DNA of 64,000 nucleotides from Escherichia coli (GCF_013315695.1 NZ_CP054353.1); one strand, 5' to 3'; positions 3,244-57,946 are shown, counted from the first letter of the stretch. Notes: generated from the letters alone by a model not told the origin. A program made the numbers and translations.

Positions 3244-3289
3244 CAGCATTAACAGGGCGGCACATTGTGCCGCCACAGGAGAAAGAAAA

Positions 3290-3673: not shown

Positions 3674-3836
3674 TCACGCTGGCGAAGTTCGACAACGTTG
3701 AAGAACTGGTCGCTGATATAGCAGTCGTGTTTAACTGGTCGCCCGGCGAGATATTCTCAATGCCTCTCGTCGAGGTGATGAGCTGGCGTGAGCGGGCGGC
3801 GCAACGTAGCGGAGTCCGCAACAGTGAAATCCCTTG
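3290..3836 (+). CDS. E': E+E' fusion product predicted from -1 programmed frameshift at 3619..3626
   Basis: After a -1 slip on the T-run, the frame stays open to TGA at 3834..3836 and encodes ...VITLAKFDNVEELVADIAVVFNWSPGEIFSMPL..., resembling the conserved P2 E' extension. Confidence 0.55.
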
Positions 3837-6800
3837 ATATTCGTGTCAGCTTTGGCGCAATTGACCGGCTGACATGCCCGACCGAAAACGCCCGCCGTCA
3901 GGTGGGCGCTCTCACTGAATCCCTTCAGAAGACGCAGAACAACATACAGGCGCTCGACAGACAGTCGAAGGTGTTCGATCGTGCCGCCGGAAATCTCAGT
4001 AAATACCGCGAACAGATTGCCCGCGCGGAGCAGAGGCTCGCCGGGCTGCGAAAGGCAGAGCAGAACGGTAACATCCTCTCCGAAAAGCAGCGCGAAACGC
4101 TGGCGGCACTCTCCGCGCGGCTTGAGCGCCTGAACGAGCTGCGCACGCGCGAGCGCGAAAAACTCCAGGCGGCGGCTGGCGAAATGCGTAAACATGGCAT
4201 TCTGCTTTCCGGCAGCAGCCGCACCATCGAAAGTGCCGTTCGTCGCACGCAGCAGTACAACGAGCAGCTCGAGCGTGAACGGCAGGCTCTGGCTCGCGTG
4301 ACGCAGGCACAGAGCCGCTATGAGGCCGCGAAGGCACAGGCGGAAAAACTGCGCAACACAGGGGCTGTGGCGATGGCGGCGGGTACAGGCGGCCTGTATG
4401 CGGCGCAGCGCATGATGGCTCCGGCGATGGAGTCCGAACAGCACGGTGCGGTCATCGCAGCCGGTTCGGGGGAAGGCGCACAGGATGGCGCACGTTACAC
4501 CCACATCATCCGTAACATACAGGCTGACGGTCTCGCTGATTTTGCCGGTGCTGCGGAGGCCGTGAGTGCGGTACGCAGCACGCTCGGCGCACTGGGCGAC
4601 ACCGGTGACAGGGAGCTTGAGCGCATCAGCCGTCGTGCGCTGGATATGCGGACCGTCTTTGGTGTTGATGTGCCGCAGAGCATTCAGGCCGCTGCCATCA
4701 TGATGAAGAACGGGCTGGCCGCCAGCAGTGACGAGGCTACTAACCTGATGACGGCAGGGATGCAGCGCATGTCCGCTGAAATGCGCGATGAACTGCCGGA
4801 AATTCTGCATGAGTATTCCACCCACTTCCGCAACATGGGCTTCACCGGCAGCGAGACAATGAGTCTGCTGGTTGAGATGGCAAAGCAGGGCAAGTTTGCG
4901 CTGGACAAAACCGGCGATGCCGTGAAGGAGTTCAGTATCCGTGGTTCGGATATGTCGAAATCCAGTGTTTCAGCGTATGAGACACTTGGCCTGAATGCCG
5001 AACGGGTGTCTGCTGCCATTGCTCAGGGGGGCAGTACCGCACGCCAGGCGATGCAGGTGACCGCCCGTGCACTGCTGGCCATCCGTGACCCGGCAGAGCG
5101 GGCGAACACGGCCATTGCGTTATTCGGCACCCCCGTTGAAGACCTTTCCGTTGACCAGATCCCGCAGTTCCTGAGGGCGCTGGCTGATGTTCGTGACAAT
5201 CTGGGCGATGTCACCGGTGTGGCAGACCGCATGGGGCAGACGCTGCGCGGTAATCTCTCCGGCGATATTCAGGCGCTGAGTGGTGCGTTCTCAGGGCTAC
5301 GCACGGACATCTTCGGTACTGTGACCGAGGATTTGCGCGGGCTGGTTCAGACGGTGAGCGCGTGGGTGACCCGGATGCGCGAATGGGTCGGAGAGCATCA
5401 GGCGCTGGTCAGGGTGCTGGTACTGGCGGGCGGGAGTGTTCTGGCGCTGTCTTCTACGTTCGGTGCGCTGTCACTGACGCTCGGGCTGATTGCGGGGCCG
5501 CTGGCAAAACTGCAACTGGGACTGGGGCTGCTGACGGGGGGCGGCGGCATTGGTGGTGCTGTCCGGCTTGTGTCTGCGATGGCGCTGCGCCTGACGGGGC
5601 TGCCTGCGCTGTGGGGGCTGGTCACGGGGGCGGTGTCGGTACTGGGTGGTGCAGTGGGGGCGCTGTTCAGCCCGGTCGGGCTGATTGTTGCCGCCCTGGT
5701 GGGCGGCGCGGTTCTGGTGTGGAAATACTGGGATCAGATCAGTGCGTTTTTTTCCGGCTTTTTTGCCGGAGTGTGGGAGGCGCTGCAACCGCTGCGGGAA
5801 GCCTTTGCGTCGCTGGCTCCGGTGTTCGGGCTGATTGGCGATGGCATCAAAGCCGTGTGGGAATGGTTCACCCGCCTGCTTGAACCTGCAAACGCCTCAA
5901 AAGAGACACTCGACAAATGCACCAGCGCCGGGGAGTCGTTCGGGAAAACGCTGGGGTGGGTCATTCAGAACATTGTGCTGGGGCCGCTGACACTGCTTCT
6001 TGATGGCCTCGGCACAGTGCTGAAGTGGCTGGGTGTTATCCCGGATGGCATCAGGGAAGCGCAGAAGGAGACGCAAAAACTCCAGGAGAGCGCCGCAAAA
6101 CAGGCCACACAAAAAGCGCCGGTTGCGTGGGAGTGGGATCCTGCACAGAAAAAAATGGTGCAGAAAACATGGTCGTGGTCATCAGATGCAGCGGAAAACA
6201 ACGGTGACAATAAACCCGCAATACCTGCCCCTGCGGTTCCCGGAGAGGTGAAGGGAACGTCAGACAATCCGGTCGGCAAACCCGGTAGTAAATCCCCGCT
6301 GGATGAGGCATGGTTCCGGCAGGGGATACAGAAAACCGCCAGCAACACCGGCGGGCTGCTTGAGGAAACCAAAAAACGTACTGGTCCCGGCGATATTGTT
6401 TTCAAAAACCTGCCCGGACCCGAAATCATTCACGGCGAGTGGAAAGCACCGCAGGTTATCCGGACAGTGCAGGCGGTATCGGCGGGCGGAGGACTGGCGG
6501 ATGCGCTGACAACGCTCTGGCAGAAACTCACCGGAAGACAGACTGCTTCACCCGTTCCGGTCGTGAATATTCCTGCGCCAGTGGAGAGAGTGGCACGTCA
6601 GGTATCCACGCTGCCACAGCCGCAGCACAACGAGGCAAATACAGAACTGGTTGCCGGTATTCAGCGCGTGCATGAGGCTGTGAACAGTCCGGGGGGAGAG
6701 ACGGTATCGCCTCCACCTGTGGTGAACGTTCTGATGCCAGCAGTGAATGTTCCTGCGCCAGTGGTGAGTGTGGCGCGTCAGGTATCCACGCTGCCGCAGC

Positions 6801-7288
6801 ACAACGAGGCAAATACAGAACTGGTTGCCGGTATTCAGCGTGTGCATGAGGCGGTGAACAGTCCGGGTGGAGAGACGGTATCGCCTCCACCTGTGGTGAA
6901 CGTTCTGATGCCAGCAGTGAATGTTCCTGCGCCAGTGGTGAGCGTGGCCCGTCAGGTATCCACGCTGCCGCAGCACAACGAGGCAAATACAGAGCTGGCT
7001 GCCGGTATTCAGCGCGTGCGTGAGGCTGTGAACAGTCCGGGTGGAGATGTGGCTTTATCTGTTCCTGTTGCGGAGGTTATCCGTCCACCGCTGCGACCGG
7101 AGTCCGTCAAAAAAGAAACCGCGCCACAAACGCAGGCTGCGGTATTTTCCGGTGAGATACACGTGCATCTGCACAACGTCAACACGCAGAATCCGCGTGA
7201 ACTGGCAAAACTGGTTGGCGAGGCTGTCCGCGAAGAGATGCGCAGACAGGTGCGTACAGGCATGAACAGCTTCCGTGACAGGGACTAA
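3788..7288 (+). CDS. T: Tail tape measure protein T
   Basis: 1166-aa ORF after E/E' with coiled-coil N-terminal part, Gly/Ala/Leu-rich hydrophobic core and internal tandem repeats; start codon uncertain (GTG 3788 or a downstream GTG). Confidence 0.85.
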   Translation: MSGRRNVAESATVKSLDIRVSFGAIDRLTCPTENARRQVGALTESLQKTQNNIQALDRQSKVFDRAAGNLSKYREQIARAEQRLAGLRKAEQNGNILSEKQRETLAALSARLERLNELRTREREKLQAAAGEMRKHGILLSGSSRTIESAVRRTQQYNEQLERERQALARVTQAQSRYEAAKAQAEKLRNTGAVAMAAGTGGLYAAQRMMAPAMESEQHGAVIAAGSGEGAQDGARYTHIIRNIQADGLADFAGAAEAVSAVRSTLGALGDTGDRELERISRRALDMRTVFGVDVPQSIQAAAIMMKNGLAASSDEATNLMTAGMQRMSAEMRDELPEILHEYSTHFRNMGFTGSETMSLLVEMAKQGKFALDKTGDAVKEFSIRGSDMSKSSVSAYETLGLNAERVSAAIAQGGSTARQAMQVTARALLAIRDPAERANTAIALFGTPVEDLSVDQIPQFLRALADVRDNLGDVTGVADRMGQTLRGNLSGDIQALSGAFSGLRTDIFGTVTEDLRGLVQTVSAWVTRMREWVGEHQALVRVLVLAGGSVLALSSTFGALSLTLGLIAGPLAKLQLGLGLLTGGGGIGGAVRLVSAMALRLTGLPALWGLVTGAVSVLGGAVGALFSPVGLIVAALVGGAVLVWKYWDQISAFFSGFFAGVWEALQPLREAFASLAPVFGLIGDGIKAVWEWFTRLLEPANASKETLDKCTSAGESFGKTLGWVIQNIVLGPLTLLLDGLGTVLKWLGVIPDGIREAQKETQKLQESAAKQATQKAPVAWEWDPAQKKMVQKTWSWSSDAAENNGDNKPAIPAPAVPGEVKGTSDNPVGKPGSKSPLDEAWFRQGIQKTASNTGGLLEETKKRTGPGDIVFKNLPGPEIIHGEWKAPQVIRTVQAVSAGGGLADALTTLWQKLTGRQTASPVPVVNIPAPVERVARQVSTLPQPQHNEANTELVAGIQRVHEAVNSPGGETVSPPPVVNVLMPAVNVPAPVVSVARQVSTLPQHNEANTELVAGIQRVHEAVNSPGGETVSPPPVVNVLMPAVNVPAPVVSVARQVSTLPQHNEANTELAAGIQRVREAVNSPGGDVALSVPVAEVIRPPLRPESVKKETAPQTQAAVFSGEIHVHLHNVNTQNPRELAKLVGEAVREEMRRQVRTGMNSFRDRD
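6560..7060 (+). repeat. About 2.7 tandem copies of an in-frame ~174-bp unit inside T
   Basis: Peptide unit PAPVVSVARQVSTLPQHNEANTELVAGIQRVHEAVNSPGGETVSPPPVVNVLMPAVNV repeats near 6565, 6747 and 6921; the first copy carries an extra PQ. Confidence 0.8.
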
Positions 7289-9528: not shown

Positions 9529-11306
9529 ATTGCCTCTCTTAATTGCCTGTCATTTAATTCTTTATGCCATATGCGGAAATTACGAATGTGACCAAACAGA
9601 TGTCGTTCTCCAGTACTCGTTCGCCCTCCAATACGGATAATTGCGGAGTTCTGAATATATGACCATGTGGTTTTTGTTTCGCCGGATAACCGTCCGTTAC
9701 TGACTGAGCATGTAGACTGATCTGACTTTACTCGCATCCCTATAACCATTTTTTCAAGTGATGCGTTTTCGTTTACCCGCATGTTAGCCCCGCCTATATC
9801 GCAATAAGGAAATCCGTCGTAATCCGTCGAACGACCGAATCCAAGAATAATTTCCTCTCCAGTTTGATGACCACTGGTATTAAGAACACGCGGTGCTGCA
9901 TTTGGCGTTTTATACCAGTTCTTATGTACCTCACAAAGAACAGTAAAAGGAGGATTATAAAGATTATTCTTAACCGGAACTGTCACAATATCACTTGCAC
10001 GTGTTGCTGGTGTTGCACCCGATATAATAAATGATGATGCGCAGGGGCCATTTTCAACCTGAGGGGTGGACAGGAAAACATAATCTCCTGATTCAACGAC
10101 ACCACCTTCTTTCGGAGTGTATTGTATTGCCGATGTTATGTAGGACTCATCAATTGCCTGAATCGTTGCCTCTGCAAAAATCCAGCCGGTAACCTCATCT
10201 TTGTTAACTCGGGCAGTGATCCTGTCGGCAGCTCCTCCTGTGATTTTAACTGATAAAGATCGCGTATTAACAATGGCATATCCAAGGTTAGATGATGTGT
10301 TGCCATCGTAAGATTCAAACCTGATCCTTAACATGAGTTCCAGATCAGTTTTAAATCTGCACGATGTCGTCACGCACTTATTATCGCCTGAAACATCGAC
10401 GGCTCCGGTTACTGCAACTGATGCCATGTTAACAGGCAGGGACTGCCCAATCAGAGAATCGTTACAGACGAACTTTCCATAGGTAAAACCAGAACTGTCC
10501 GTCCCGGTTTCGGGAACATCCATATTTACCGACTTGCCCCAGTTGACCGGGGTTTCCGAATTGAGCATGTAGTTTGTTCTTTGCCCTTCAATAAGCAGTC
10601 CATCGCGTTCAAATCGCGGCTCATTAATTTCAGCTATTTTCAGTTCACCGGATTTATTGATATAGGTTGCCGTTGATGCGCGACTGAAACTAACCTGTTT
10701 ATCACTGGCAACCTGAACCACATCGTCACCAATGGTGATTTTTTTATAGCCCGGTGCGAACCCCGTAAGCATATCCAGTGAATCGTTAAACGGTATCCAC
10801 ACATCAGGCAGCGGCGGTACAGACTCCTTTTCCTGCGCAACATATTCTTCAACATAGGCGCGGGTGGCGAGCACGACAGAGGGATCAACTTTCAGTTCGA
10901 CAGACGAAGCACTGGAAACCACAACAATCATGCGAATCGTCTGCGTGCGCCCGCTTCCCTCGGTGAGTACAGGCTTGTAGGTTTCGGGGCAGTTCGCCAC
11001 GGCAATCATCACGCCGTCGCTGTCAAAAAGCCCAATCTCGCGGATCCAGAACCCCCCTTTATCTTCCGGGATAATCATCTCGGCGATAAGCTGGCTGGCA
11101 TCAGACGCGCTGATGCTCAGTTGATTCAATGGGGCGCTGTATACCGTGTTCACCAGATTTTCCATGGAAGCCTCCGGTTCCGGCAGGCTGCCGCCGCCAT
11201 CCCCCAGTTTCATGGTGGTGATGGATATTTTCGAGCCGCTGGCCACCGCCTTTGCCAGACGGGCGGCACCCTTGTCAGTCAGAACAGAAAAATATTTTAC
11301 AGTCAT
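9525..11306 (-). CDS. H: Tail fibre protein H (conserved P2-like N-terminus, divergent C-terminal region)
   Basis: N-terminus ...ITTMKLGDGGGSLPEP...WIREIGLFDSDGVMIAVANCPETYKP...SGRTQTIRMIVVVSSASSVELKVDPSVVLATRAYV matches P2 gpH; the rest is unrelated, as expected for a receptor-binding part. Confidence 0.85.
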   Translation of the reverse strand: MTVKYFSVLTDKGAARLAKAVASGSKISITTMKLGDGGGSLPEPEASMENLVNTVYSAPLNQLSISASDASQLIAEMIIPEDKGGFWIREIGLFDSDGVMIAVANCPETYKPVLTEGSGRTQTIRMIVVVSSASSVELKVDPSVVLATRAYVEEYVAQEKESVPPLPDVWIPFNDSLDMLTGFAPGYKKITIGDDVVQVASDKQVSFSRASTATYINKSGELKIAEINEPRFERDGLLIEGQRTNYMLNSETPVNWGKSVNMDVPETGTDSSGFTYGKFVCNDSLIGQSLPVNMASVAVTGAVDVSGDNKCVTTSCRFKTDLELMLRIRFESYDGNTSSNLGYAIVNTRSLSVKITGGAADRITARVNKDEVTGWIFAEATIQAIDESYITSAIQYTPKEGGVVESGDYVFLSTPQVENGPCASSFIISGATPATRASDIVTVPVKNNLYNPPFTVLCEVHKNWYKTPNAAPRVLNTSGHQTGEEIILGFGRSTDYDGFPYCDIGGANMRVNENASLEKMVIGMRVKSDQSTCSVSNGRLSGETKTTWSYIQNSAIIRIGGRTSTGERHLFGHIRNFRIWHKELNDRQLREAI

Positions 11307-45205: not shown

Positions 45206-46612
45206 TTGCATATGAGTTGCTATTTGAAAGTCCTGATTTGTGCGATTGTCGCACTCGCTATATGGTTTTTCCCCGTCCCCGACGGATTAACACCCTTAAC
45301 CTGGCACATTCTGGCCATATTTATCACCACTGTGGTGGCGTTTATTCTGCAACCGTTGCCGGTGGGCGCTATCGCGTTAATAGCCATCAGTTTTATTATG
45401 CTGACCGGTATGATGAAAACCAGCGAAGCCTTAAAAGGTTTCAGCAGCACGACGGTATGGCTTATTGTCGCCGCATTCCTGTACGCGAAAGGATTCATCA
45501 AAACGGGGTTGGGGCGGCGTATCGCCTATTTGCTGATTCGCGGATTTGGCGGCAGCTCGTTGCGTCTGGGTTATACATTGGCGCTAAGCGATATGATTAT
45601 CGCGCCCGCAACGCCATCAAACACAGCGCGAGCAGGAGGGATTTTGTTCCCGATTGTTCGCAGTGTCTCTAACAGCTTTGGATCTGAACCGGATCAAGGG
45701 CCGCGTAAAATAGGCGCTTATCTGATGCAGACGGTGTTCCATTCCAACTGCCTCTCATCCTCGATGTTTATGACGGCCAGCGCGCCAAATGCACTCATTG
45801 TATCTCTGGCGGCCAGCACTTTATTTGTCGATATCTCATGGGGGATGTGGACGCTAAGCGCACTGGTGCCGGGCATTATCGCTTTTATCACTATGCCGTT
45901 GGTCATTTACAAACTCTACCCGCCAGAGATCAAAAAGACGCCAGAAGCCAAAGCGTTGGCACAGGAAGAACTTATCAAAATGGGGCCGGTAACCCGTGAT
46001 GAGCGCGTGACGATTGGCATTTTCCTGCTTTCATTATTGGCCTGGAGTACATCGAAATGGACTGGCCTGGATGCGACGGCTGTTGCGCTTTCTGGCGTCT
46101 GTTTAATGTTGATGACCCGGATTATCACCTGGCAGGATGTGCAGTCAGAGAAGGGGGCCTGGGACATTCTGGTCTGGCTGGGAGTCATGATCTGTATGGC
46201 AGATAAGCTCAATCAGCTTGGCCTGTTCAAATGGTTTGCCGTCACAACCTCGGCGCTGTTCACCGGCATTCCGTGGGAGATAACGTTGACGGTGTTGCTG
46301 ATAGTTTACTGCTATTCCCACTATTTCTTTGCCGGAAGTACGCCGCATGTAGTGGCGATGTATGCCGCTTTTGGCAGCGTCTCGGTTGCTGCTGGCGCAC
46401 CGCCGATGATGGCGGCTCTGTCACTGGCGTTCGTCACTAACCTGATGAGCGGCATTTCGCATTATGGCAACGGACCCGCAGTGATCTATTACGGCGCTGG
46501 CTATGTCTCGCAACGAGAATGGTGGCGGCTGGGCTTTATCGTCATGTTGTTGAACATTGTCATCTGGTTCGGACTGGGGGCGGTGTGGTGGAAAATTCTT
46601 GGCCTGTGGTAA
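45206..46612 (+). CDS. Anion permease, DASS/SLC13-like (organic acid transporter candidate)
   Basis: 468-aa polytopic membrane protein with SNTARAGGI motif; not in the K-12 ppsA-fadK interval as I recall it. Confidence 0.65.
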   Translation: MHMSCYLKVLICAIVALAIWFFPVPDGLTPLTWHILAIFITTVVAFILQPLPVGAIALIAISFIMLTGMMKTSEALKGFSSTTVWLIVAAFLYAKGFIKTGLGRRIAYLLIRGFGGSSLRLGYTLALSDMIIAPATPSNTARAGGILFPIVRSVSNSFGSEPDQGPRKIGAYLMQTVFHSNCLSSSMFMTASAPNALIVSLAASTLFVDISWGMWTLSALVPGIIAFITMPLVIYKLYPPEIKKTPEAKALAQEELIKMGPVTRDERVTIGIFLLSLLAWSTSKWTGLDATAVALSGVCLMLMTRIITWQDVQSEKGAWDILVWLGVMICMADKLNQLGLFKWFAVTTSALFTGIPWEITLTVLLIVYCYSHYFFAGSTPHVVAMYAAFGSVSVAAGAPPMMAALSLAFVTNLMSGISHYGNGPAVIYYGAGYVSQREWWRLGFIVMLLNIVIWFGLGAVWWKILGLW

Positions 46613-46647
46613 GTGGCCTGCGACAAACATCAATCAAGGAATAGTGT

Positions 46648-47607
46648 ATGAACTTAAAAGATATTCAAGTGGCGATCGTCGGCAAACTAAGTGATCGCTT
46701 AATGGCTAAAGTTGAATCTACCTTCACCGCATATCGCCTGTGGGAACTGGCTGATGAAGGCGCTTTTTACACGCAAATCGCGCCGGATATTCAGGCGCTG
46801 GTGACCAGTGGTAATCCGGTAATGGGGGCTTCTCGGGCGCTAATAGAAAAATTTCCGAATCTGAAGATTATTGCCAGCAACGGTGTGGGTTATGACCCTA
46901 TTGATATCGTGGCAGCCAGGGAGCATGGCGTTATCGTCACCAACACACCTGGCGTGCTTAATGACTGTGTCGCAGACATTGGTATAGCGTTGTTACTCAA
47001 TGTTGCCCGACGTATTAACATTGCCGATCGTTATGTTCGTGACGGCCGTTGGCCAAACGAGGGGCGTTTCCCGATGGCGACGAAAGTGAGTGGCAAACGT
47101 TGCGGAATTGTCGGTCTGGGGAACATTGGTAACGCAGTAGCCCGCCGTGCAGCAGCATTTGAAATGGAAATTCACTATTTCGACCCAAAACCGCATAACA
47201 AACCTGATTGGACGGCGCATGATTCGTTGGTTTCTCTGGCGCAAGCGGTGGACTTCCTCGTTCTGACGCTGCCAGGCGGCGCGAGTACGCGCGGCGTTAT
47301 TGACAAAACGGTGCTGCAGGCTCTGGGGAAAACCGGGCATTTGATCAGTATTTCCCGGGGATCAGTGGTGAACGAAACCGATCTGATTGATGCTCTGCAA
47401 AATAACATTATTGCTGGTGCGGCACTGGACGTTTATGCCAACGAACCACATGTGCCAGAACAATTAATGTCGCTGGATAACGTTGTCCTTACGCCACATA
47501 TCGCCAGTGGTACGAGCGAAACGTTTAATGCGATGGCGGATTTGGTATTTGATAACTTACAGGCTTTCTTTAGCGGACAGCCAGTTATTACCCCTGTTAC
47601 TCAATAA
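46648..47607 (+). CDS. D-isomer-specific 2-hydroxyacid dehydrogenase
   Basis: NAD-binding GIVGLGNIGNAVARR and catalytic-region motifs typical of glyoxylate/hydroxypyruvate reductases. Confidence 0.8.
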   Translation: MNLKDIQVAIVGKLSDRLMAKVESTFTAYRLWELADEGAFYTQIAPDIQALVTSGNPVMGASRALIEKFPNLKIIASNGVGYDPIDIVAAREHGVIVTNTPGVLNDCVADIGIALLLNVARRINIADRYVRDGRWPNEGRFPMATKVSGKRCGIVGLGNIGNAVARRAAAFEMEIHYFDPKPHNKPDWTAHDSLVSLAQAVDFLVLTLPGGASTRGVIDKTVLQALGKTGHLISISRGSVVNETDLIDALQNNIIAGAALDVYANEPHVPEQLMSLDNVVLTPHIASGTSETFNAMADLVFDNLQAFFSGQPVITPVTQ

Positions 47608-47617
47608 GGCGGAAAAT

Positions 47618-48097
47618 ATGATTTATGGTGATATCGCGTATCTTAGTGAACAACAAAAGCGGACATTTCATCCTGTCATCACTCGTGTCATTGAGTATCT
47701 TTCACAACATGATCTGAATAGTCTTCCTGTGGGAGAGAAGGTTTTTATTCAGGATGACTCAATATTTTATACCGTGGTTGAACCGATGACTAAACCACTA
47801 CATGAATGTCGACCGGAAGTTCATCGTAAATATCTTGATGTCCATTTTTTAATTGCCGGAGAAGAGCGGATTTGTGTGGATTTTGATGATGGGGAAAACT
47901 CGGTTGTAGAAAGCCACCTGGGCGACCGTGATGTTATTTTTTATGCTGATGAACGTATTAATGATCGAATCATCACGCTGACACCAGGACAGTTTGTGGT
48001 GGTCTTTCCGGAAGAAGTGCATCGGGCATGCTATAAAATCGATAACGTGGAAAAAATCAAAAAAACAGTCGTGAAAATCGACATGAGTTTATTATAG
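47618..48097 (+). CDS. YhcH/YjgK/YiaL-family protein
   Basis: 159-aa ORF (start at MIYGDIAYL with AAGGCGGA RBS); C-terminal ...KKTVVKIDMSLL resembles family members. Confidence 0.65.
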   Translation: MIYGDIAYLSEQQKRTFHPVITRVIEYLSQHDLNSLPVGEKVFIQDDSIFYTVVEPMTKPLHECRPEVHRKYLDVHFLIAGEERICVDFDDGENSVVESHLGDRDVIFYADERINDRIITLTPGQFVVVFPEEVHRACYKIDNVEKIKKTVVKIDMSLL

Positions 48098-48109
48098 GCG
48101 GAGCTGGCT

Positions 48110-48853
48110 ATGACAAAAATTGCCCTGGTGACGGGGGGAAGTAAAGGCATCGGCTACGCAGCAGCAAAGGCACTCTATGACATTGGATATACAGTTATTG
48201 TTGCCGCGCGTAACGAAGAAACCTTACAGCAATGTGCACAAGGATTAGCCAAGGAACGCTTTATTCCTCTGGTTGCCGATGTCACGGATGAGTCCGCTGT
48301 CGTTGCGCTATTTGCCGAGATTAAGGCTCTTTTTGGTCGACTGGATCTCTTGTTCAATAATGCGGGCAATAATAGTCCGGCAAAAAGTATTGAAGAGGTT
48401 GAGTTTACTGAGTGGACGCGCGTGTTTAACGCCAATATTCATTCGACATTTTTGTGTTCGAAAGAGGCGATTAAAATCATGAAAGCGCAGCAGCCAATGG
48501 GAGGACGTATTATTAACAATGCGTCGATTTCTGCACTGACGCCGCGCCTCTATACTGCGCCATACACGGCGTCGAAACATGCTGTTACCGGGTTGACCAA
48601 GGCCATTTCCCTGGATTGTCGCAAATTTAATATCGCTTGCGGGCAAATTAATATCGGCAATGCGGAAACGACATTATCGAATCGGATGCGTAAGGGCGTT
48701 TATCAGGCAGATGGTGCTATTAAAGCGGAAGATATGATGAATGTTGCTGATGTTGCAGCGACCATTCAGATGATGGCTCAGTTGCCAGTAACCACGAATG
48801 TGCTGGAAATAACGATTATGGCAAATAATATGCCGTATGTCGGACGTGGTTAA
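48110..48853 (+). CDS. Short-chain dehydrogenase/reductase
   Basis: N-terminal TGGSKGIGYA Rossmann motif; YTASK catalytic motif. Confidence 0.8.
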   Translation: MTKIALVTGGSKGIGYAAAKALYDIGYTVIVAARNEETLQQCAQGLAKERFIPLVADVTDESAVVALFAEIKALFGRLDLLFNNAGNNSPAKSIEEVEFTEWTRVFNANIHSTFLCSKEAIKIMKAQQPMGGRIINNASISALTPRLYTAPYTASKHAVTGLTKAISLDCRKFNIACGQINIGNAETTLSNRMRKGVYQADGAIKAEDMMNVADVAATIQMMAQLPVTTNVLEITIMANNMPYVGRG

Positions 48854-48903: not shown

Positions 48904-49120
48904 TTATGCCTCAACGCATGTTTGTTCCAGCCGTTGAAGAATATCTTTACGTAACAAAAATTTTTGTATTTTACCGGAGGCAGTGCGCGGTAGTTTTTCG
49001 ATTACCACGATATGTTCAGGATATTTATATTTCGCGACCCGTTTACGGCTAAAAAATGCCACTACATCTTCCAGCGATAATGAATGATGCGGTGCTTTCA
49101 GCACGACATAAGCGCATGAA
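48904..49120 (-). pseudogene. fadK: fadK 3' fragment, separated from the 5' part by IS1
   Basis: Encodes ...YVVLKAPHHSLSLEDVVAFFSRKRVAKYKYPEHIVVIEKLPRTASGKIQKF..., the acyl-CoA synthetase C-terminus. Confidence 0.85.
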
Positions 49121-49175
49121 GGTGATGCTGCCAACTTACTGATTTAGCGTATGATGGTGTTTTTGAGGTGCTCCA

Positions 49176-49451
49176 GTGGCTTCTGTTTCTATCAGCTGTC
49201 CCTCCTGTTCAGCTACTGACGGAGTGGTGCGTAACGGCAAAAGCACCGCCGGACATCAGCGCTATCTCTGCTCTCACTGCCGTAAAACATGGCAACTGCA
49301 GTTCACTTACACCGCTTCTCAACCCGGTACGCACCAGAAAATCATTGATATGGCCATGAATGGCGTTGGATGCCGGGCAACAGCCCGCATTATGGGCGTT
49401 GGCCTCAACACGATTTTACGTCACTTAAAAAACTCAGGCCGCAGTCGGTAA
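49176..49451 (+). CDS. insA: IS1 InsA
   Basis: [43 protein letters not shown]... Confidence 0.95.
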
Positions 49452-49873
49452 CCTCGCGCATACAGCCGGGCAGTGACGTCATCGTCTGCGCGGAAATGGA
49501 CGAACAGTGGGGCTATGTCGGGGCTAAATCGCGCCAGCGCTGGCTGTTTTACGCGTATGACAGGCTCCGGAAGACGGTTGTTGCGCACGTATTCGGTGAA
49601 CGCACTATGGCGACGCTGGGGCGTCTTATGAGCCTGCTGTCACCCTTTGACGTGGTGATATGGATGACGGATGGCTGGCCGCTGTATGAATCCCGCCTGA
49701 AGGGAAAGCTGCACGTAATCAGCAAGCGATATACGCAGCGAATTGAGCGGCATAACCTGAATCTGAGGCAGCACCTGGCACGGCTGGGACGGAAGTCGCT
49801 GTCGTTCTCAAAATCGGTGGAGCTGCATGACAAAGTCATCGGGCATTATCTGAACATAAAACACTATCAATAA
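49370..49873 (+). CDS. insB: IS1 InsB (normally expressed as InsAB' by frameshift)
   Basis: 167-aa ORF overlapping insA in another frame. Confidence 0.9.
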
Positions 49874-49888
49874 GTTGGAGTCATTACC

Positions 49889-51375
49889 GCGCATGAACGT
49901 TCACCTAAACGTTCATCGGGCATCGCAACCACACAGGCATCGTGAATTTTAGGATGCTGCAATAAAATATCTTCTACTTCACGGCTGCTAATATTTTCGC
50001 CGCCGCGGACAATAATATCTTTCTTGCGCCCGGTTATTTTTATATAGCCAGCCTCATCCATGCGGCAGAGATCGCCGCTGTAATACCAGCCTTCTTCATC
50101 CAGCGCACGGGCGGTTAATTCAGGTTCATCAAAATACCCCATAAACACATTGGGGCCACGCGAGGCTTCTTCACCTTCGCAACCTGGCGGTAAGGTCTTG
50201 CGTGCGTCATCGACCACTTTAATCTCTACACCTGCGGCAGCGTAACCATCGGTGTGCATAAAGCGCGACAAAGGATCATCGAGATTCACCACCGCATGCG
50301 GCGAACTTTCTGTGGAACCATAAACACTTAATAATTTAATGCCGCGCTGCTGGCATTCACGCGCCACTTTTTTGGGGATTGTGGTACCGCCGCAAAGAAA
50401 GAAACGCAGCGCTGAAAGGTCTGCGGGCTGTTTCTCTAGTAAATTCAAAAGATCATAGACAAACGGCGTTGCGCCGAGCATACAGGTGCAACGCTGCTGC
50501 TCAAGCAGCGCGAGACACGCAGCAGGAGTGAAAATATCTAACAACACGCTGCGAGCACCAATTAAAAATGGTGCTGTTACGCCATGCAGAAAGCCCGTTG
50601 CGTGACCAAGTGGCGCAGGCATCATAAAGACATCCTGCCAGGTCAGATTCAGCCGCGCGCAATAAGCCCGCTCACTGGCGAGAATATTGTTATGCGTTAG
50701 CATCACGCCCTTTGGCAGACCCTCGGTTCCGGAGGTAAACAGCACCGCGGCTAATTCATCGCCGTGGACCGTTATCGCCGTGGTCAGAGGAGTATTGTCG
50801 GCGATAATCTGACTTAATGAGAGGGAAGAGGTGGCGGGAGCCAGTTTGTCCACGCCGACAATTTGTTGTAGTTGTGGAAGCTGATTTTGCAGTGGCAGGA
50901 TTAAATCTACCGGACGCGTTTGTTTAAACAACGTCGGTGCAAAGAACATTTTTGCCTGACACTTATTGAGCACCCACACCAGTTCTGCTTCCCGCCAGGA
51001 AGGTAACAGCGGCACGGAAACCGCACCGGTTTTCAGGCAGGCAAGATAGATAACGGTAAATTCACACCAGCCTGGCAGTTGAAATGCGATGCGATCGCCT
51101 GATTCAATACCCTTCGCTAACATCCAGTTTGCCAGACAGCTCGCGGCGTGATCGAGCGCGCTATAGGTGTACGTTGCACCATGATTGTCGACCACGGCAA
51201 TTTTGTCTGGCATCGCACGAGCGGTCTGCTGCCAGTAATCGGCCAGTGAAGCATCGCCCCATAACCCTTGCTGACGATACGCCGCACGACGTTGTTCGTT
51301 AAACGTTAATGTCACTTTCATTTTGGACTCTCGAAACAGAACATCAGGCCCGAGATGCGGGCCTGTGGGATGCAT
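49889..51375 (-). pseudogene. fadK: fadK 5' part (short-chain acyl-CoA synthetase), interrupted at its 3' end by IS1
   Basis: AMP-binding motifs TSGTEGLPKG, YGSTE; reading frame runs into IS1. Confidence 0.85.
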
Positions 51376-51377
51376 GA

Positions 51378-51671
51378 TTAGCCGTAGCGAAAATCAATAC
51401 CGAAGGTGCCTGCGGGATATTGCCACTGTTCGAGAATAGTGTTACCGCACAGCACCCGACAGGTGCCGCACTCCAGACAACCGGCGGAATCGAAATGAAT
51501 GTTTCCTGCGTCATCCTGCTTATAAAGTCCGGCAGGGCAGGCTTTCATTAATTTACGGAATTCATTGATATCGGGATTTGCCGCCAAAATGATATGCGGG
51601 TGGCCCTCATCAACATGGAATTTATTGACGCCTAATTTGATGTCGACGTTAACCGTAGCGTTCTGGCTCAT
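51378..51671 (-). CDS. ydiT: Ferredoxin-like protein (FixX-like)
   Basis: 97-aa ORF with Cys cluster CLECGTCRVLC, K-12 gene order. Confidence 0.85.
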   Translation of the reverse strand: MSQNATVNVDIKLGVNKFHVDEGHPHIILAANPDINEFRKLMKACPAGLYKQDDAGNIHFDSAGCLECGTCRVLCGNTILEQWQYPAGTFGIDFRYG

Positions 51672-52957
51672 AGCGCGGTTGCTCCCTTAATGCCATCTTT
51701 CAGCAAGTTGATCAGCCCAATTTTCTTCGCGTGTCCCATGATCATTTTGCGTACCGGCTGGTTTGGTTTGCCGTCAATGGTGAACATCTCGTTCATGATG
51801 TCGGCTACCATTCGTGGGTATTGGCTAAACAGGCGCGGGTTTTCCATCAGCGCCGGGATCTTGCGGAAATGCTGCATATCGCGCATAACACAACTTTGTT
51901 CCAGCTCACGTTTGTATTGCGCAAGACTGCTGGCGGAGAAATCCGCGCGTTCTTTGGCGGCAATCACTGTTGTGGCGGCAGCCTGAGCTGATGCAATGGC
52001 TAAATCCATGCCGCGAACTGTAAAACCCAAATTCAGGCAGAAGCCTGCGGCGTCACCAACGATAATCACGCCATCGTTAACCAGCTGCGGCACCATCGCC
52101 AGACCGCCTTCCGGTACCATATGCGCGGAGTATTCAAGCAGTTTGCCGCCGCTAATCAGCGGGCGAATGGCGGGGTGTTGTTTAAAATCTTCCAGCATTT
52201 GCGGCACACTTTTTTGCGCATGGGCGATATCACCCAATCCACAAACCAGCCCCAACGATACGGAATCCTTGTTGGTATAGAGAAATCCGCCACCCATCAG
52301 GCCGTCCGAAGGGGAACCGGCAAACAGCCAGGCGGCACCTTCCTCGCCCGTAATATTAAAGCGATCGTTGATCTGTTCTGGTGTGAGGCCAATAACCTCT
52401 TTAACACCAACAGCGTAATGATGCGGATCGGAAGCGGGAACCATTCCCAGCGAGCGGCCAAGCATCGAGTTAACGCCATCAGCCAGAATCACCACATTCG
52501 CTTCAAGAACATCATCCCCGGCCTGAACGCCAGTGACCTTGTTTCCTTCACGAACCAGCGCATCGACACGAACGCCCGGGATAAACTGCGCGCCAGCCTG
52601 TTCGGCTTGTTCCATCAACCACGGGTCCAGACGATTACGCAATACGGTATAAGACGCGTGTTGCGGAACATCTGATTGCTCGCGGTGAAAATCGAGGGTA
52701 ACGGCACTCTCTTTGGTTAAGAAGGAGATTTTCTCGCGTGTGACCTTGCGTTCTACTGGCGCTGATGCTGCAAAGCCTGGAATGATTGCTTCAAGTGTGT
52801 GGGCATAAAGACGCCCGCCGGTCATGTTTTTACATCCGGCACTGTCGCCGCGTTCTATCACCAGGACATCCAGCCCGGCTCGCGCCATGACCAGTGCGGC
52901 AACGCTACCGGCAACGCCCGCACCGACCACAATGGCATCAAATTTGTCATCCGACAT
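51668..52957 (-). CDS. ydiS: FixC-like flavoprotein dehydrogenase
   Basis: N-terminal FAD motif FDAIVVGAGVAGS. Confidence 0.85.
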   Translation of the reverse strand: MSDDKFDAIVVGAGVAGSVAALVMARAGLDVLVIERGDSAGCKNMTGGRLYAHTLEAIIPGFAASAPVERKVTREKISFLTKESAVTLDFHREQSDVPQHASYTVLRNRLDPWLMEQAEQAGAQFIPGVRVDALVREGNKVTGVQAGDDVLEANVVILADGVNSMLGRSLGMVPASDPHHYAVGVKEVIGLTPEQINDRFNITGEEGAAWLFAGSPSDGLMGGGFLYTNKDSVSLGLVCGLGDIAHAQKSVPQMLEDFKQHPAIRPLISGGKLLEYSAHMVPEGGLAMVPQLVNDGVIIVGDAAGFCLNLGFTVRGMDLAIASAQAAATTVIAAKERADFSASSLAQYKRELEQSCVMRDMQHFRKIPALMENPRLFSQYPRMVADIMNEMFTIDGKPNQPVRKMIMGHAKKIGLINLLKDGIKGATAL

Positions 52958-53012
52958 GCGTTATGCTCCCTTCCCGCTGCGTTTACAGCGGGAGATGTGG
53001 TTGAAAGGGGAA

Positions 53013-53951
53013 TTAGCGGCTCAACTGGCTAATCAGGGCAGGGACGACTTTGTAGATATCGCCCACCAGACCGTAGTCGGCATAGTTGAAGATTGGCGCA
53101 TTTTTATCTTTATTGATGGCGACAATCACTTTTGCGCCGTTGCCGCCAACCATATGTTGGATCTGCCCGGAGATCCCCAGCGTCAGGTAGAGATCGGATT
53201 TCAGCAACACGCCGGAGACACCGATATAACGTTCACGCTCCATCCAGTTCTCGCCTTCGGCAATTGGACGTGAACAGCCGACTTCAGCATTCAGCACTGC
53301 CGCCAGTTCGTGGACCATTTTCAGGTCATCCTGCGCCGCCAGACCACGACCGACGCCAACCACACGTTTTGCTTTGCTCAGGTCCACGCTGCTTGCCGCT
53401 TTCGCACGGCGTTCGCGACAGAGAATTTCATGACGCGGGGCAACATAAGGTACCGTTTCTGTCGGGCACTGATGAGAGATATCACTGGTGCACGGTTCCT
53501 GAACACCGGGTGCAAGGGTAATGATTGCCAGCGGGCTGTTGATCTTTTCCTGAGCGAACGCTAACCCGCCATACATCCGGTGTTCGGCGCAAATGTGACC
53601 ATCGACAATATCCACCGCAGTGGCATCGTTCACCAGCGCCGCATTCAGTTGCACACTTAACCGTGCTGCCAGAGCTTTACCACGTTTCGTCGCGGCCAGC
53701 AGCAACATAGAAGGGTGTTTATCTTTCAGCAGGGCAGCAATGCTTTCGGCGTAATTTTCAGTACGTTGCAGCGCGTCGTTTTGCTCAAGAACATAAATGC
53801 ATTTTGGCCCATAAGGCATAACTGTCTGCGCCTGGTCGGTATTTTGTACAATGGCATACACCTGTTGGCCCCATTGCTGAGCGCCGCCAAACAGTTCAGC
53901 ATAACGTTCAGGATTATCGCTAAAGACCCAGACGCTGTTTAATTGACTCAT
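53013..53951 (-). CDS. ydiR: Electron transfer flavoprotein alpha subunit-like
   Basis: 312-aa ORF, K-12 gene order. Confidence 0.85.
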   Translation of the reverse strand: MSQLNSVWVFSDNPERYAELFGGAQQWGQQVYAIVQNTDQAQTVMPYGPKCIYVLEQNDALQRTENYAESIAALLKDKHPSMLLLAATKRGKALAARLSVQLNAALVNDATAVDIVDGHICAEHRMYGGLAFAQEKINSPLAIITLAPGVQEPCTSDISHQCPTETVPYVAPRHEILCRERRAKAASSVDLSKAKRVVGVGRGLAAQDDLKMVHELAAVLNAEVGCSRPIAEGENWMERERYIGVSGVLLKSDLYLTLGISGQIQHMVGGNGAKVIVAINKDKNAPIFNYADYGLVGDIYKVVPALISQLSR

Positions 53952-53970
53952 CGTTTCTTCTCCGTAGGCT

Positions 53971-54735
53971 TCAGTTCAGGGCTTTCTTCAGATGTTCCAC
54001 CAGCTCGGCAATGGCCTCCGGCGAATCGTTATCGAGAATGATGTGCTTACGTTCTGTTTGCGGCGGTACGCGAATGCCGGTCAGTTCAGCAAGTGGCGCG
54101 CTCTGGCTCCAGCCAATGTCACTTGCCTGCCACTGATTTACCGGTTTTTTACCCGCGCCGAGAATGGCTTTCATCGAAGGAATGCGTGGCATGTTAATAT
54201 CGGAGGTGACGCAGAGCACGGCTGGAACAGAGAGCTCAATAACTTCAACATCATCTTCAAGCGTGCGTTCAATCACCAGTGTATTGCCCTGACGCTGAAT
54301 AGCACTCACTGCATTAATCACCGGAAGTTGCAGAATTTCTCCGACCAGCAAGCCAACCTGCTGGGCATAAAGGTCGCCGGAACCTTCACCAAAGATCAGT
54401 AAATCGAAGCCGATCTTTTCAACTGCTGCCGCCAGCGCCTTTGCGGTATCGAGAGGCAGTGCATGTTCAAGTTGCGCATCCTGCACCAAATACAGGCTAT
54501 GCGGCCCGCGGGATAGCACGTCTTTACGCACTTTCGAGTTCTGCAACAATGAGCCGCCAATGGTCAGCGCGGCTATCTCATCGTCATCTGTTGCAATCTG
54601 GCTTGCAGCTTCAATGGCATTGAGATCGAACTGGCTGATTTTGGCGTCGGCATTGTCGAAATTCAGGGTATATTCTGGAGTGACAACAATGTCCTGTTCT
54701 TCAGGCACCAGCTTAAAGCAGGTTATTATTTTCAT
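53971..54735 (-). CDS. ydiQ: Electron transfer flavoprotein beta subunit-like
   Basis: Start placed at MKIITCFKLVPEEQD. Confidence 0.85.
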   Translation of the reverse strand: MKIITCFKLVPEEQDIVVTPEYTLNFDNADAKISQFDLNAIEAASQIATDDDEIAALTIGGSLLQNSKVRKDVLSRGPHSLYLVQDAQLEHALPLDTAKALAAAVEKIGFDLLIFGEGSGDLYAQQVGLLVGEILQLPVINAVSAIQRQGNTLVIERTLEDDVEVIELSVPAVLCVTSDINMPRIPSMKAILGAGKKPVNQWQASDIGWSQSAPLAELTGIRVPPQTERKHIILDNDSPEAIAELVEHLKKALN

Positions 54736-55050
54736 GATTTCTCCTGTGAGTCGCATACGGAACCATCTCCGATGGAAGGTAAAAATGGCCTGAAAATAGT
54801 GTGCGATAGCGGTGCGGGGTTTTCGACGGAGCAAGCTGTTTTCCTTGCCAACAATCTTGCAAAAAAAATGCGATCGCTAAAACAAAAGTGCAATTTGCGG
54901 CAATATAGTTATTCCATGACCGTACAATCTTGCATTCAGTGTAAATAATCTTGTTTAGCTCTCGCTAAACGCGGTTGTATAACCGCAATACACGCCGTAT
55001 TTTATCCGGCATATATTGTTTTTGCTTGCTCATGGAATAGGGAGGTTGTC

Positions 55051-55748
55051 ATGTATCAACGCTGTTTTGATAACGCCAGTGAAACGCTGTTTGTCGCCGG
55101 TAAAACGCCACGGCTTTCACGTTTCGCATTTAGCGATGATCCAAAATGGGAGTCCGGACATCACGTTCATGACAATGAAACCGAGCTGATTTACGTCAAG
55201 AAAGGGGTAGCAAGGTTTACCATCGATTCTTCGTTATATGTCGCGCATGCCGATGACATTGTGGTGATAGAACGTGGCAGGCTGCATGCGGTGGCCTCTG
55301 ACGTTAACGATCCGGCAACGACGTGTACCTGTGCGCTGTACGGCTTTCAGTTTCAGGGGGCTGAGGAAAATCAGCTACTGCAACCGCATTCTTGCCCGGT
55401 AATTGCCGCAGGGCAGGGAAAAGAAGTCATTAAAACCTTATTTAATGAGCTAAGTGTGATTTTGCCGCAAAGTAAAAATAGCCAAACATCTTCGTTATGG
55501 GACGCATTTGCCTATACGTTAGCAATTCTTTACTATGAAAACTTTAAAAATGCTTATCGTTCGGAGCAGGGATATATTAAAAAAGATGTTCTGATAAAAG
55601 ATATTCTTTTCTATCTGAATAATAACTATCGCGAAAAAATCACTTTAGAGCAGTTATCGAAAAAGTTTCGTGCCAGCGTCAGTTATATTTGCCATGAATT
55701 TACCAAAGAGTATCGCATTTCCCCTATTAACTATGTTATTCAACGGCG
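55051..55748 (+). pseudogene. ydiP: ydiP 5' part (AraC-family regulator), interrupted by IS1
   Basis: Reading frame continues into IS1; the C-terminal HTH part lies beyond the IS. Confidence 0.8.
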
Positions 55749-55803
55749 GGTGATGCTGCCAACTTACTGATTTAGTGTATGATGGTGTTTTTGAGGTGCT
55801 CCA

Positions 55804-56079
55804 GTGGCTTCTGTTTCTATCAGCTGTCCCTCCTGTTCAGCTACTGACGGGGTGGTGCGTAACGGCAAAAGCACCGCCGGACATCAGCGCTATCTCTGCT
55901 CTCACTGCCGTAAAACATGGCAACTGCAGTTCACTTACACCGCTTCTCAACCCGGTACGCACCAGAAAATCATTGATATGGCCATGAATGGCGTTGGATG
56001 CCGGGCAACAGCCCGCATTATGGGCGTTGGCCTCAACACGATTTTACGTCACTTAAAAAACTCAGGCCGCAGTCGGTAA
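55804..56079 (+). CDS. insA: IS1 InsA
   Basis: Identical protein to insA of copy 1. Confidence 0.95.
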
Positions 56080-56501
56080 CCTCGCGCATACAGCCGGGCA
56101 GTGACGTCATCGTCTGCGCGGAAATGGACGAACAGTGGGGCTATGTCGGGGCTAAATCGCGCCAGCGCTGGCTGTTTTACGCGTATGACAGGCTCCGGAA
56201 GACGGTTGTTGCGCACGTATTCGGTGAACGCACTATGGCGACGCTGGGGCGTCTTATGAGCCTGCTGTCACCCTTTGACGTGGTGATATGGATGACGGAT
56301 GGCTGGCCGCTGTATGAATCCCGCCTGAAGGGAAAGCTGCACGTAATCAGCAAGCGATATACGCAGCGAATTGAGCGGCATAACCTGAATCTGAGGCAGC
56401 ACCTGGCACGGCTGGGACGGAAGTCGCTGTCGTTCTCAAAATCGGTGGAGCTGCATGACAAAGTCATCGGGCATTATCTGAACATAAAACACTATCAATA
56501 A
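55998..56501 (+). CDS. insB: IS1 InsB
   Basis: Identical protein to insB of copy 1. Confidence 0.9.
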
Positions 56502-56516
56502 GTTGGAGTCATTACC

Positions 56517-56739
56517 TCAACGGCGTATGACGGAAGCGAAATGGTCACTCACTAATACTGAATTATCACAGACAGAGATCTCCTGGCGTGTGGGTTATGA
56601 AAATGTCGATCACTTTGCCAAACTGTTTTTGCGCCATGTCGGCTGTTCGCCCAGCGATTACCGCAGGCAATTTAAAAACTGTTTTGCGGAACAAGAAATC
56701 TTATCTGAATTTCCTCAACCGGTAAGTCTTGCCGGATAA
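56517..56739 (+). pseudogene. ydiP: ydiP 3' fragment (AraC-type HTH region)
   Basis: Frame continuing after the target duplication encodes ...TELSQTEISWRVGYENVDHFAKLFLRHVGCSPSDYRR. Confidence 0.75.
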
Positions 56740-56781
56740 ATCTGGCGGCGCAGTTTGTTAAGAAGCTGCGCCGCCTGCAGA

Positions 56782-57933
56782 TTATTTGTTCTGATAATCT
56801 TTCAGGATCTGCCGACCTGCTACGTAAATCATAATTTCGTCTGTACCGCCGCCGATACGTTCACAACGGACATCACGCCAGAAGCGGGAGACGCGCGCCT
56901 CATCGGTATAGCCCAGACCGCCCATGATTTGAATCGCATCATCAATAACTTCCATTGCGGTACGTGCGCAGTACAGTTTTGCCAGCGCCGCGCTGGTGCG
57001 CAGTGACTGATGCTGATCGGCTTGCCATGCCACTTTCAACACCATGTTGCGCATGTTGTCGATCTTAATCGCCATCAGCGCCAGTTTTTCCTGGATCATC
57101 TGGTTATGACCAATGGGCTTACCAAAAGCGATACGCTGGTTGGCATAGCGGGCGGCATCTTCGAATGCGCATTCGGCAAAGCCGGTGCTGCGCGCGGCGT
57201 TGATCAGGCGCTCCATCTCAAAGTTGTACATCACATTGAGGAAACCCATTCCTTCTTCGCCCACCATGTCGCTCTCTTCAACTTCCACGTTGTCGAGATA
57301 GACTTCGCAGGTGCTGAGCATATGCCAGCCGATTTTATGCAGTGGATTGATTTTAATGCCGGGCTTACTGGAGTCGACCCACCACAGAGTAAAGGCCTTT
57401 TTCGGATCTTTCGGTTGCGGATCGCGCGCCAACACCAGCATATATGGATACTCTTTCGCACCGGTAATAAAGGTTTTCTGTCCGTTGATGTAAACCTTGC
57501 CGTTTTTACGCGTGTAAGTGGTAGTGGCACTGTTGTTGTCTGAGCCTGCGCCTGGCTCCGTCAATGCCAGGGCATAGGCGGGATCACCCGTTTCCAGTGT
57601 GCTCTCTGCCGTTTTACGTAGCTGCTCTGCAGAACCGAAACGGCGCATACTGTGAATACATTGACCGTTGGTAATCAAAAATGCCGGAGCACCGCATTTT
57701 GACACTTCCATCAGCGCCAGCATTTGGGTGACGTAATCCGCAGGGATACCACCAAATTCTTCCGGCACGCCAAGCATGGAAATACCGTTATCCGCCAGTG
57801 CCCGCATAAACTCACGCGGGTATGTCCCGTTTTGATCGCAGGTGCGGAAATACTCTTCCGGAAAGTTAGTCGTAATCAGTTCGCGAATACTGGCCAGCAG
57901 CAGTTCTTGTTCTTCAGTTAAAGAAAAATCCAT
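56782..57933 (-). CDS. ydiO: Acyl-CoA dehydrogenase
   Basis: Start at MDFSLTEEQELL; 383 aa. Confidence 0.9.
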   Translation of the reverse strand: MDFSLTEEQELLLASIRELITTNFPEEYFRTCDQNGTYPREFMRALADNGISMLGVPEEFGGIPADYVTQMLALMEVSKCGAPAFLITNGQCIHSMRRFGSAEQLRKTAESTLETGDPAYALALTEPGAGSDNNSATTTYTRKNGKVYINGQKTFITGAKEYPYMLVLARDPQPKDPKKAFTLWWVDSSKPGIKINPLHKIGWHMLSTCEVYLDNVEVEESDMVGEEGMGFLNVMYNFEMERLINAARSTGFAECAFEDAARYANQRIAFGKPIGHNQMIQEKLALMAIKIDNMRNMVLKVAWQADQHQSLRTSAALAKLYCARTAMEVIDDAIQIMGGLGYTDEARVSRFWRDVRCERIGGGTDEIMIYVAGRQILKDYQNK

Positions 57934-57946
57934 CATTATACTCCTG

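Follow-up and report, generated by a model that had tools for sequence, protein, structure and literature searches.

Direct pairs of the insertion sequence IS1 around genes are the layout of Tn9 and of the IS1-flanked resistance determinant of R100, and direct IS1 repeats permit the enclosed block to be excised, tandemly amplified, or transposed. Two IS1 copies in direct orientation are also present in a 64,000-nucleotide (nt) stretch of Escherichia coli DNA (GCF_013315695.1, NZ_CP054353.1), which is referred to below as the window and is numbered from its first letter. One copy (IS1-L) lies in fadK, the gene of an acyl-CoA synthetase, and the other (IS1-R) in ydiP, which encodes an AraC-type regulator. 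In having direct IS1 repeats around a gene block, the locus resembles Tn9, the R100/NR1 determinant, and the argF segment of K-12 as these systems are generally known. It differs from them in that the block is native chromosomal DNA in place, the two copies have separate target duplications, and no mobilized copy of the block was found.

With regard to the element itself, IS1 has been described as 768 base pairs (bp) long, encoding the repressor InsA and, via a −1 frameshift at an A6C site, InsAB′, and producing a target duplication of 8–9 bp (PMC12428005). The IS1A element of E. coli K-12 has in common with both copies in the window its length of 768 bp, imperfect terminal repeats, insA and insB′, the A6C site at nt 307, and a 9-bp target duplication. 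It appears that the window records two separate, ordinary IS1 transpositions in an IS1-rich E. coli lineage, a reading to which a probability of about 0.9 is assigned.

Anatomy and Identity of the Two IS1 Copies

IS1-L occupies positions 49121–49888 and IS1-R positions 55749–56516; both are 768 bp long and lie on the plus strand, IS1-L being antisense to fadK and IS1-R running in the same direction as ydiP. In IS1-L, insA spans 49176–49451, the A6C frameshift site 49427–49433, and the insB′ frame ends at 49873; the corresponding positions in IS1-R are 55804–56079, 56055–56061, and 56501. IS1-L is flanked by two copies of the 9-bp sequence GCGCATGAA (49112–49120 on the left, 49889–49897 on the right), and IS1-R by two copies of TCAACGGCG (55740–55748 and 56517–56525), as computed directly from the sequence. 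An initial annotation, made from this DNA alone, had described two same-orientation IS1 elements of 768 bp, each with its own perfect 9-bp duplication; this description proved correct to the base, and both junctions, when re-examined, matched the IS1 ends and the target duplications.

The two copies differ at only two positions, nt 28 (C in IS1-L versus T in IS1-R) and nt 103 (A versus G, synonymous in insA), and thus form a 768-bp repeat at 99.7% identity. The chance of each exact 9-bp duplication is about 4e-6, and the repeat together with the two duplications is far beyond chance. Each element contains a 91-amino-acid (aa) InsA open reading frame (ORF), a 167-aa InsB ORF, and an overlapping insB′ in the −1 frame, with the slippery site AAAAAAC at nt 307. 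The Pfam domains PF03811 (1.3e-21), PF12759 (4.7e-31), and PF03400 (2.3e-78), named Zn_ribbon_InsA, HTH_Tnp_IS1, and DDE_Tnp_IS1, were detected in their products. In both copies, 18 of 23 positions are shared by the left and right terminal repeats, the ends do not differ from those of K-12 IS1A, and the reading frames and ends are intact. Every testable defining feature of the IS1 family is present in both, and the copy in E. coli MSB1_4I that is identical to IS1-R is labeled in RefSeq as an IS1A-family transposase with programmed frameshift.

Compared with K-12 IS1A, the identity is 767/768 for IS1-R and 765/768 for IS1-L. Both window copies carry G444, which changes Ser to Arg in InsB′ within YAYD(S/R)LRK; the resulting transposase corresponds to RefSeq WP_103215986.1, which is annotated on IS1 copies of several strains. 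IS1-L additionally has C28, in the left-end region, and the synonymous A103. It was reported that the IS1 promoter overlaps the left terminal repeat in part (PMC12428005), and C28 of IS1-L falls in that region.

Interruption of fadK and ydiP

IS1-L lies in fadK after codon 478 of 546, 215 bp upstream of the stop codon. The 5′ fragment of the gene (49889–51321, minus strand) retains 478 native codons, after which the frame enters the right end of IS1, gains VMTPTY, and stops at 49867; a K-12-style upstream start would be at 51375. The 3′ fragment (48904–49120, minus strand), whose coordinates are a reconstruction transferred from the intact fadK of MSB1_4I, comprises codons ~476–546 and the stop, and includes the left duplication copy. 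When IS1-L and one duplicate were removed in silico, a minus-strand FadK of 546 aa was restored that is 97.2% identical to K-12 FadK. The K-12 gene represents the empty site, as it has no interruption, contains GCGCATGA, and carries the duplicated sequence in a single copy.

The reconstructed FadK aligns over its full length with solved adenylating enzymes and contains PF00501 at residues 31–397 and PF13193 (AMP-binding_C) at 448–525. A PRTASGK motif at residues 519–525 is aligned to PRTSVGK of a solved salicylate-AMP ligase. In the adenylate-forming (ANL) superfamily, the lysine of the A10 motif is required for the adenylation step. The 484-aa product of the disrupted gene lacks the 68 C-terminal residues, and with them the conserved PRTASGK with the A10 lysine and the larger part of the mobile C-terminal domain; because of this loss, the disrupted fadK is very probably a null allele. 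The phenotype of fadK loss is reported to be weak, in that a single fadK mutant grows normally on fatty acids (PMC9329746).

IS1-R lies in ydiP after nt 698, that is, after codon 233 of 303. The 5′ fragment (55051–55748, plus strand), in which the left duplication copy is included, keeps 233 native codons for the cupin/AraC_binding domain and the first helix-turn-helix; its frame enters IS1, gains VMLPTY, and stops. The 3′ fragment (56517–56739, plus strand) starts with the right duplication copy TCAACGGCG and covers codons ~231–303 with the second helix-turn-helix. Removal in silico of IS1-R and one duplicate yields a plus-strand YdiP of 303 aa that is 99.3% identical to K-12 YdiP, and in K-12 the empty site is uninterrupted, with TCAACGGCG present once.

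Pfam places HTH_18 at residues 202–281 and HTH_AraC at 251–280 of the reconstructed YdiP. Binding of DNA by AraC-family proteins needs two helix-turn-helix motifs. Two homeodomain-like units have been assigned by SUPERFAMILY to residues 179–230 and 232–284 of YdiP (supplement of PMC8464067), and the cut after residue 233 falls between them, so that the 239-aa product has lost the second helix-turn-helix. Since one of the two DNA-binding motifs is missing, the disrupted ydiP is also very probably a null allele.

The splitting of fadK near its 3′ end and of the AraC-type gene ydiP is thus as the initial annotation had described, and the comparison with a reference that it had suggested as a check shows both sites uninterrupted in K-12. 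Its statement that the insertions inactivate the two genes holds for the disruption of both; the loss of function is deduced from the lost domains.

Order of the Two Insertions

The window was compared with 5,426 complete E. coli genomes and, in addition, with JGI metagenome contigs. The closest complete genomes are E. coli MSB1_4I (NZ_LR898874.1), from a rectal swab in Australia, and OZ547117.1, both of which have flanks 100% identical to the window and carry the ydiP copy only. In MSB1_4I, ydiP is interrupted by IS1 with the identical site, duplication, and element, and this copy is identical to IS1-R, not to IS1-L; fadK is intact and encodes 546 aa. Both ydiP halves in MSB1_4I are already recorded in RefSeq as pseudogene fragments. 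The window and MSB1_4I are 100% identical over 49889–64000, and over 34223–64000 they differ by two single-nucleotide polymorphisms and the 777-bp fadK insertion. These polymorphisms are at 38105 (A versus G) and 48569 (G versus T), the latter inside an SDR oxidoreductase gene.

The fadK::IS1 junction was found in none of the 5,426 complete genomes and had no exact match in the JGI metagenome contigs. Because near-identical relatives have ydiP::IS1 but an intact fadK, and because the fadK junction is absent from the genome set, the fadK insertion appears to be the later one. Genome comparison thus indicates that the ydiP insertion is older and inherited, while that in fadK is recent and private to this strain. 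The independence of the two insertions, which the initial annotation had drawn from their different duplications, is borne out by these relatives with the ydiP copy only and by the two linked variant sites. The private insertion points to recent activity of some IS1 copy in the lineage. IS1 is abundant there: MSB1_4I has it in at least 39–40 places, whereas the median per genome is about 10.

A third genome, 1368KP, carries an identical IS1 (record 2599–3366) at the same ydiP site, after nt 698, and in the same orientation. It differs from the window in its flanks, which are 98.5–99.5% identical, and in the left duplication copy, which has one mismatch (TCAACGGCT). This may be an old allele transferred by recombination, or else IS1 may have inserted twice at one site. 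As in MSB1_4I and OZ547117.1, the fadK junction is missing from 1368KP; an intact fadK was seen directly in MSB1_4I.

In the favored scheme, an IS1 nearly identical to K-12 IS1A would first have entered the 3′ third of ydiP, duplicating TCAACGGCG, and this insertion would have been inherited by the strain in common with MSB1_4I and OZ547117. An IS1 from another donor copy, belonging to a sub-lineage with C28 and A103, would then have entered fadK, duplicating GCGCATGAA, in an event private to this strain. Both host proteins are truncated as a result, very probably leaving null alleles. The fitness cost is expected to be small, as FadD covers for FadK and, for ydiP, the reported phenotype is impaired growth at 15 °C. 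On the most likely account, the expansion of IS1 has led to gene decay that is nearly neutral.

The Bracketed Interval and Its Potential for Deletion

The gap between IS1-L and IS1-R is 5,860 bp, and the start-to-start spacing is 6,628 bp. The interval contains the 5′ 87% of fadK, four intact genes, and the 5′ 77% of ydiP; the earlier description of the elements as bracketing ydiTSRQ within about 5.9 kb is thus right as to the four genes and the distance, and leaves out that most of fadK and ydiP is enclosed as well. The four genes are ORFs on the minus strand that are annotated in MSB1_4I: ydiT (ferredoxin-like, 51378–51671), ydiS (an oxidoreductase dependent on flavin adenine dinucleotide, 51668–52957), ydiR (electron transfer flavoprotein alpha subunit, 53013–53951), and ydiQ (electron transfer flavoprotein beta subunit, 53971–54735). 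The intergenic and promoter region between ydiQ and ydiP (54736–55050) is untouched.

A polar or activating effect of either IS1 was considered and is unlikely. fadK is the last gene of its operon, the gene past IS1-L is a convergently transcribed SDR gene, and the one past IS1-R is the convergently transcribed ydiO; with these orientations, neither element has a downstream gene on the same strand to silence or activate.

As far as established knowledge of such repeats goes, two 768-bp direct repeats would allow RecA-dependent recombination to delete fadK′-ydiTSRQ-′ydiP or to duplicate it in tandem. In the case of deletion, 6,628 bp would be lost, and the one IS1 that is left would have flanks that do not match. 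This exact deletion product is present in none of the 5,426 genomes, because none of them has the left, fadK junction.

A product of this kind does exist in E. coli HS (NC_009800.1), which lends substance to the suggestion that the direct repeats allow deletion. The order in HS is ppsA, the last 40 nt of fadK, one IS1 (record 833–1600), ydiP from nt 657, and ydiO; the rest of fadK, ydiT, ydiS, ydiR, ydiQ, and nt 1–656 of ydiP are missing, as they are in equivalent HS records. The 9-bp flanks of this IS1 do not match (AACCGCCGC versus AGAGTATCG). A single same-orientation IS1 thus replaces essentially the same block, as expected from the recombination of two direct copies. On the other hand, the end points differ, at 40 versus 215 nt from the fadK stop and at nt 657 versus 690/698 of ydiP, and for this reason the HS deletion is regarded as an independent event; its IS1 also has three differences from IS1-R. 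The HS product could equally stem from an adjacent deletion by a single IS1 copy. In either case, HS indicates that IS1-associated loss of the fadK-ydiTSRQ-ydiP′ segment occurs and persists, and it is plausible that the window represents a two-IS1 state such as precedes an HS-type deletion.

Some other strains carry IS1 without a target duplication in the same neighborhood. In PCN033, the element is inside ydiF (record 10167–10934), with a deletion within that gene; in B25FEP (record 2716–3483), ydiO is missing; and in APEC_AN-25 (record 2802–3569), ydiO and part of ydiF are missing. These states look like adjacent deletions or products of IS1–IS1 recombination. A recent preprint also mentions two clinical isolates that differ by loss of the ydiQRST-fadK region.

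Recurrent Interruption of ydiP and the Question of Selection

An alternative that survives better than the others, and is nevertheless improbable, is that the insertions are regulatory or adaptive, the knockout of YdiP and fadK having been selected for rewiring or shutting down the ydiQRST-fadK pathway. It is favored by the position of ydiP, which is divergent to ydiQ, a common layout for a local regulator, and by the pattern of insertions among the complete genomes. By junction-style queries, IS1 was found in ydiP in about 29 of the 5,426 genomes (~0.5%), at about 15 or more positions and in both orientations, whereas an equivalent query of the same design found no IS1 in fadK in this set. 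Seven genomes have IS1 at or downstream of the ydiP site of the window (nt 698, 774, 815, 853, and 901), and 22 have it at or upstream of that site with eight distinct spacings, of which the insertion in strain 2 HS-C was verified at nt 527–534. The opposite orientation occurs in three genomes, one of which was verified (nt 847–854). The IS1-associated deletions of several strains, whether in ydiF and ydiO or of the whole fadK-ydiP′ block, point in the same direction.

However, the recurrence can be explained without selection. IS1 has classically been reported to favor AT-rich targets, and the GC content of ydiP is 43% overall and 38–40% around the insertion site, compared with 50% in fadK; because the AT-rich ydiP fits this preference, the gene may simply be a mutational hot spot. 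The frequency of ydiP interruption is also low, at about 0.5% of genomes, and growth on fatty acids is unaffected in the single fadK mutant.

Regulation of the neighboring genes by YdiP is a further point on which the adaptive explanation is weakened. YdiP binding sites mapped by chromatin immunoprecipitation with exonuclease digestion (ChIP-exo) were reported at sdhC, uxaB, secG, cspA, and others, and ydiQ is not mentioned in those files (PMC8464067). A genetic-interaction study connected YdiP with the control of cold-shock (csp) genes and with a growth defect at 15 °C (PMC9283627), and its supplements contain no mention of ydiQ, ydiO, or fadK. No evidence for control of ydiQRST by YdiP was found in these two papers, their supplements, or a 2022 review (PMC9329746). 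The proposal in the initial annotation that the insertions probably alter ydiQRST-fadK expression was therefore positional guesswork, as the reported sites and the functional study lie elsewhere. Its label of an anaerobic fatty-acid module is similarly weak, since experimental evidence for YdiQR in growth on fatty acids is lacking according to the same review (PMC9329746).

It is also unlikely, to the same degree, that the stretch ydiF-ydiO-ydiP-ydiQRST-fadK is undergoing convergent IS1-mediated loss that is advantageous in some hosts, with the window as an intermediate before an HS-type deletion. The ~29 genomes with their 15 or more positions, the deletions adjacent to IS1, and the block loss in HS do not separate selection from an AT-rich hot spot.

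Origin of the fadK Copy

As the two copies are close together and share an orientation, that in fadK might be thought to have arisen when the resident ydiP copy, at a distance of 6.6 kb, transposed locally. Preferential cis action of the IS1 transposase, as reported in PMC12903888, was also counted in favor of such a hop. It is very unlikely all the same, as nt 28 and nt 103 are not the same in the two copies, and the ydiP copy of MSB1_4I matches IS1-R rather than IS1-L. The C28 allele, searched as a 33-mer centered on C28, occurs in 257 of the 5,426 genomes, and C28 and A103 are found together in unrelated IS1 copies, namely those adjacent to yjiC (SE15) and to ybcM (ATCC 43896), which have 3–4 other differences from IS1-L. 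That unrelated copies share the pair implies an inherited allele, not two fresh mutations, and a local hop from the ydiP copy was rejected on these two linked variants.

The C28/A103 pair (49148 and 49223 in the window) marks a minority IS1 sub-lineage that is usually represented by one copy per genome, often beside yjiC. The combination, in IS1-L, of these two variants with the G444 background seen in IS1-R points to a mosaic element or to an allele that has not been sampled.

It is still less probable that fadK::IS1 is an assembly artefact produced by a misplaced repeat. The junction is unique among the complete genomes and absent from the metagenomes, and the ~40 IS1 copies of the lineage hamper assembly; yet a misplaced repeat would not yield a perfect 9-bp target duplication, leave a gene that can be restored exactly in frame, or bring its own two-variant allele. 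The idea that the 7.4-kb IS1-fadK′-ydiTSRQ-′ydiP-IS1 segment came to this site, or moved, as a single Tn9-like composite transposon, for which the two direct IS1 copies around a gene block would speak, is refuted as a history. The outer flanks differ (GCGCATGAA on the left, TCAACGGCG on the right) and each IS1 is flanked by a matching pair, the interior lies at its native place and is colinear with K-12, PCN033, and MSB1_4I, a sister genome has just one of the two copies, and no true plasmid carries the segment, the full-length matches in the plasmid collection being Mb-scale or chromosomal-context records only. Future mobility of the segment as a unit is possible.

Flanking Accessory Genes and Prophage

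Four accessory genes, encoding an anion permease, a 2-hydroxyacid dehydrogenase, a YhcH/YjgK/YiaL family protein, and the SDR oxidoreductase, lie between ppsA and fadK at 45206–48853. In K-12 and PCN033, this block is missing and ppsA adjoins fadK directly; judged by coverage, the block is present in a minority of E. coli, at most ~190 of the 5,426 genomes.

Further to the left, positions 1–34222 belong to a P2-family prophage that ends at 34222 beside the ihfA/btuC junction and extends past the left end of the window. MSB1_4I differs from the window in having no P2-like prophage beside ihfA. The prophage genes include those for the tail sheath, gpD, gpU, tape measure, and tail fiber, and genes for a replication endonuclease, terminase, and capsid are present in its relatives, of which even the best reach no more than 92–94% identity. 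A 174-nt tandem repeat at 6619–7140 consists of three copies, which are 100%, 97%, and 62% identical to the reference copy, and is located within a tape-measure ORF of 1166 aa (3788–7288, Pfam PhageMin_Tail); it therefore corresponds to an in-frame repeat of 58 aa.

Conclusions

Several points weigh against the reading of two ordinary transpositions that left null alleles. In the truncated FadK, the N-terminal domain is whole and 30 residues of the C-terminal one remain, and the truncated YdiP retains the ligand-binding domain and one helix-turn-helix; partial or dominant-negative activity of either product may therefore occur, and the null status of both genes, very probable as it is, is deduced from the lost domains. 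The donor of the fadK copy was not found, since none of the sequenced IS1 copies retrieved combines exactly C28, A103, and G444, and the private insertion is known from the assembly alone. In addition, ydiP has been struck by IS1 more often than the neighboring stretch of fadK, which could mean selection and not target preference. On the other hand, nothing contradicts the structural reading of two separate insertions. Both alleles are of a kind already known: that of ydiP is in RefSeq as a pseudogene, and that of fadK adds a further example of a textbook process.

The finding carries little weight beyond the annotation of this strain, in which fadK and ydiP should be marked as pseudogenes, and it is a case of genome decay of the routine kind rather than a novel system. 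By its private fadK::IS1 junction, the strain can be told apart from the near-identical MSB1_4I and OZ547117, and the junction indicates that IS1 is still moving in an IS1-rich lineage. The direct repeats would make the fadK′-ydiTSRQ-′ydiP segment unstable, so that spontaneous deletion is possible. If the strain were used for work on YdiO/YdiQRST, short-chain fatty-acid activation, or cold adaptation through YdiP, null phenotypes should be expected. More generally, the recurrent interruption of ydiP and the block loss in HS offer a modest pointer for population genomics, where they bear on IS1 target choice versus selection.

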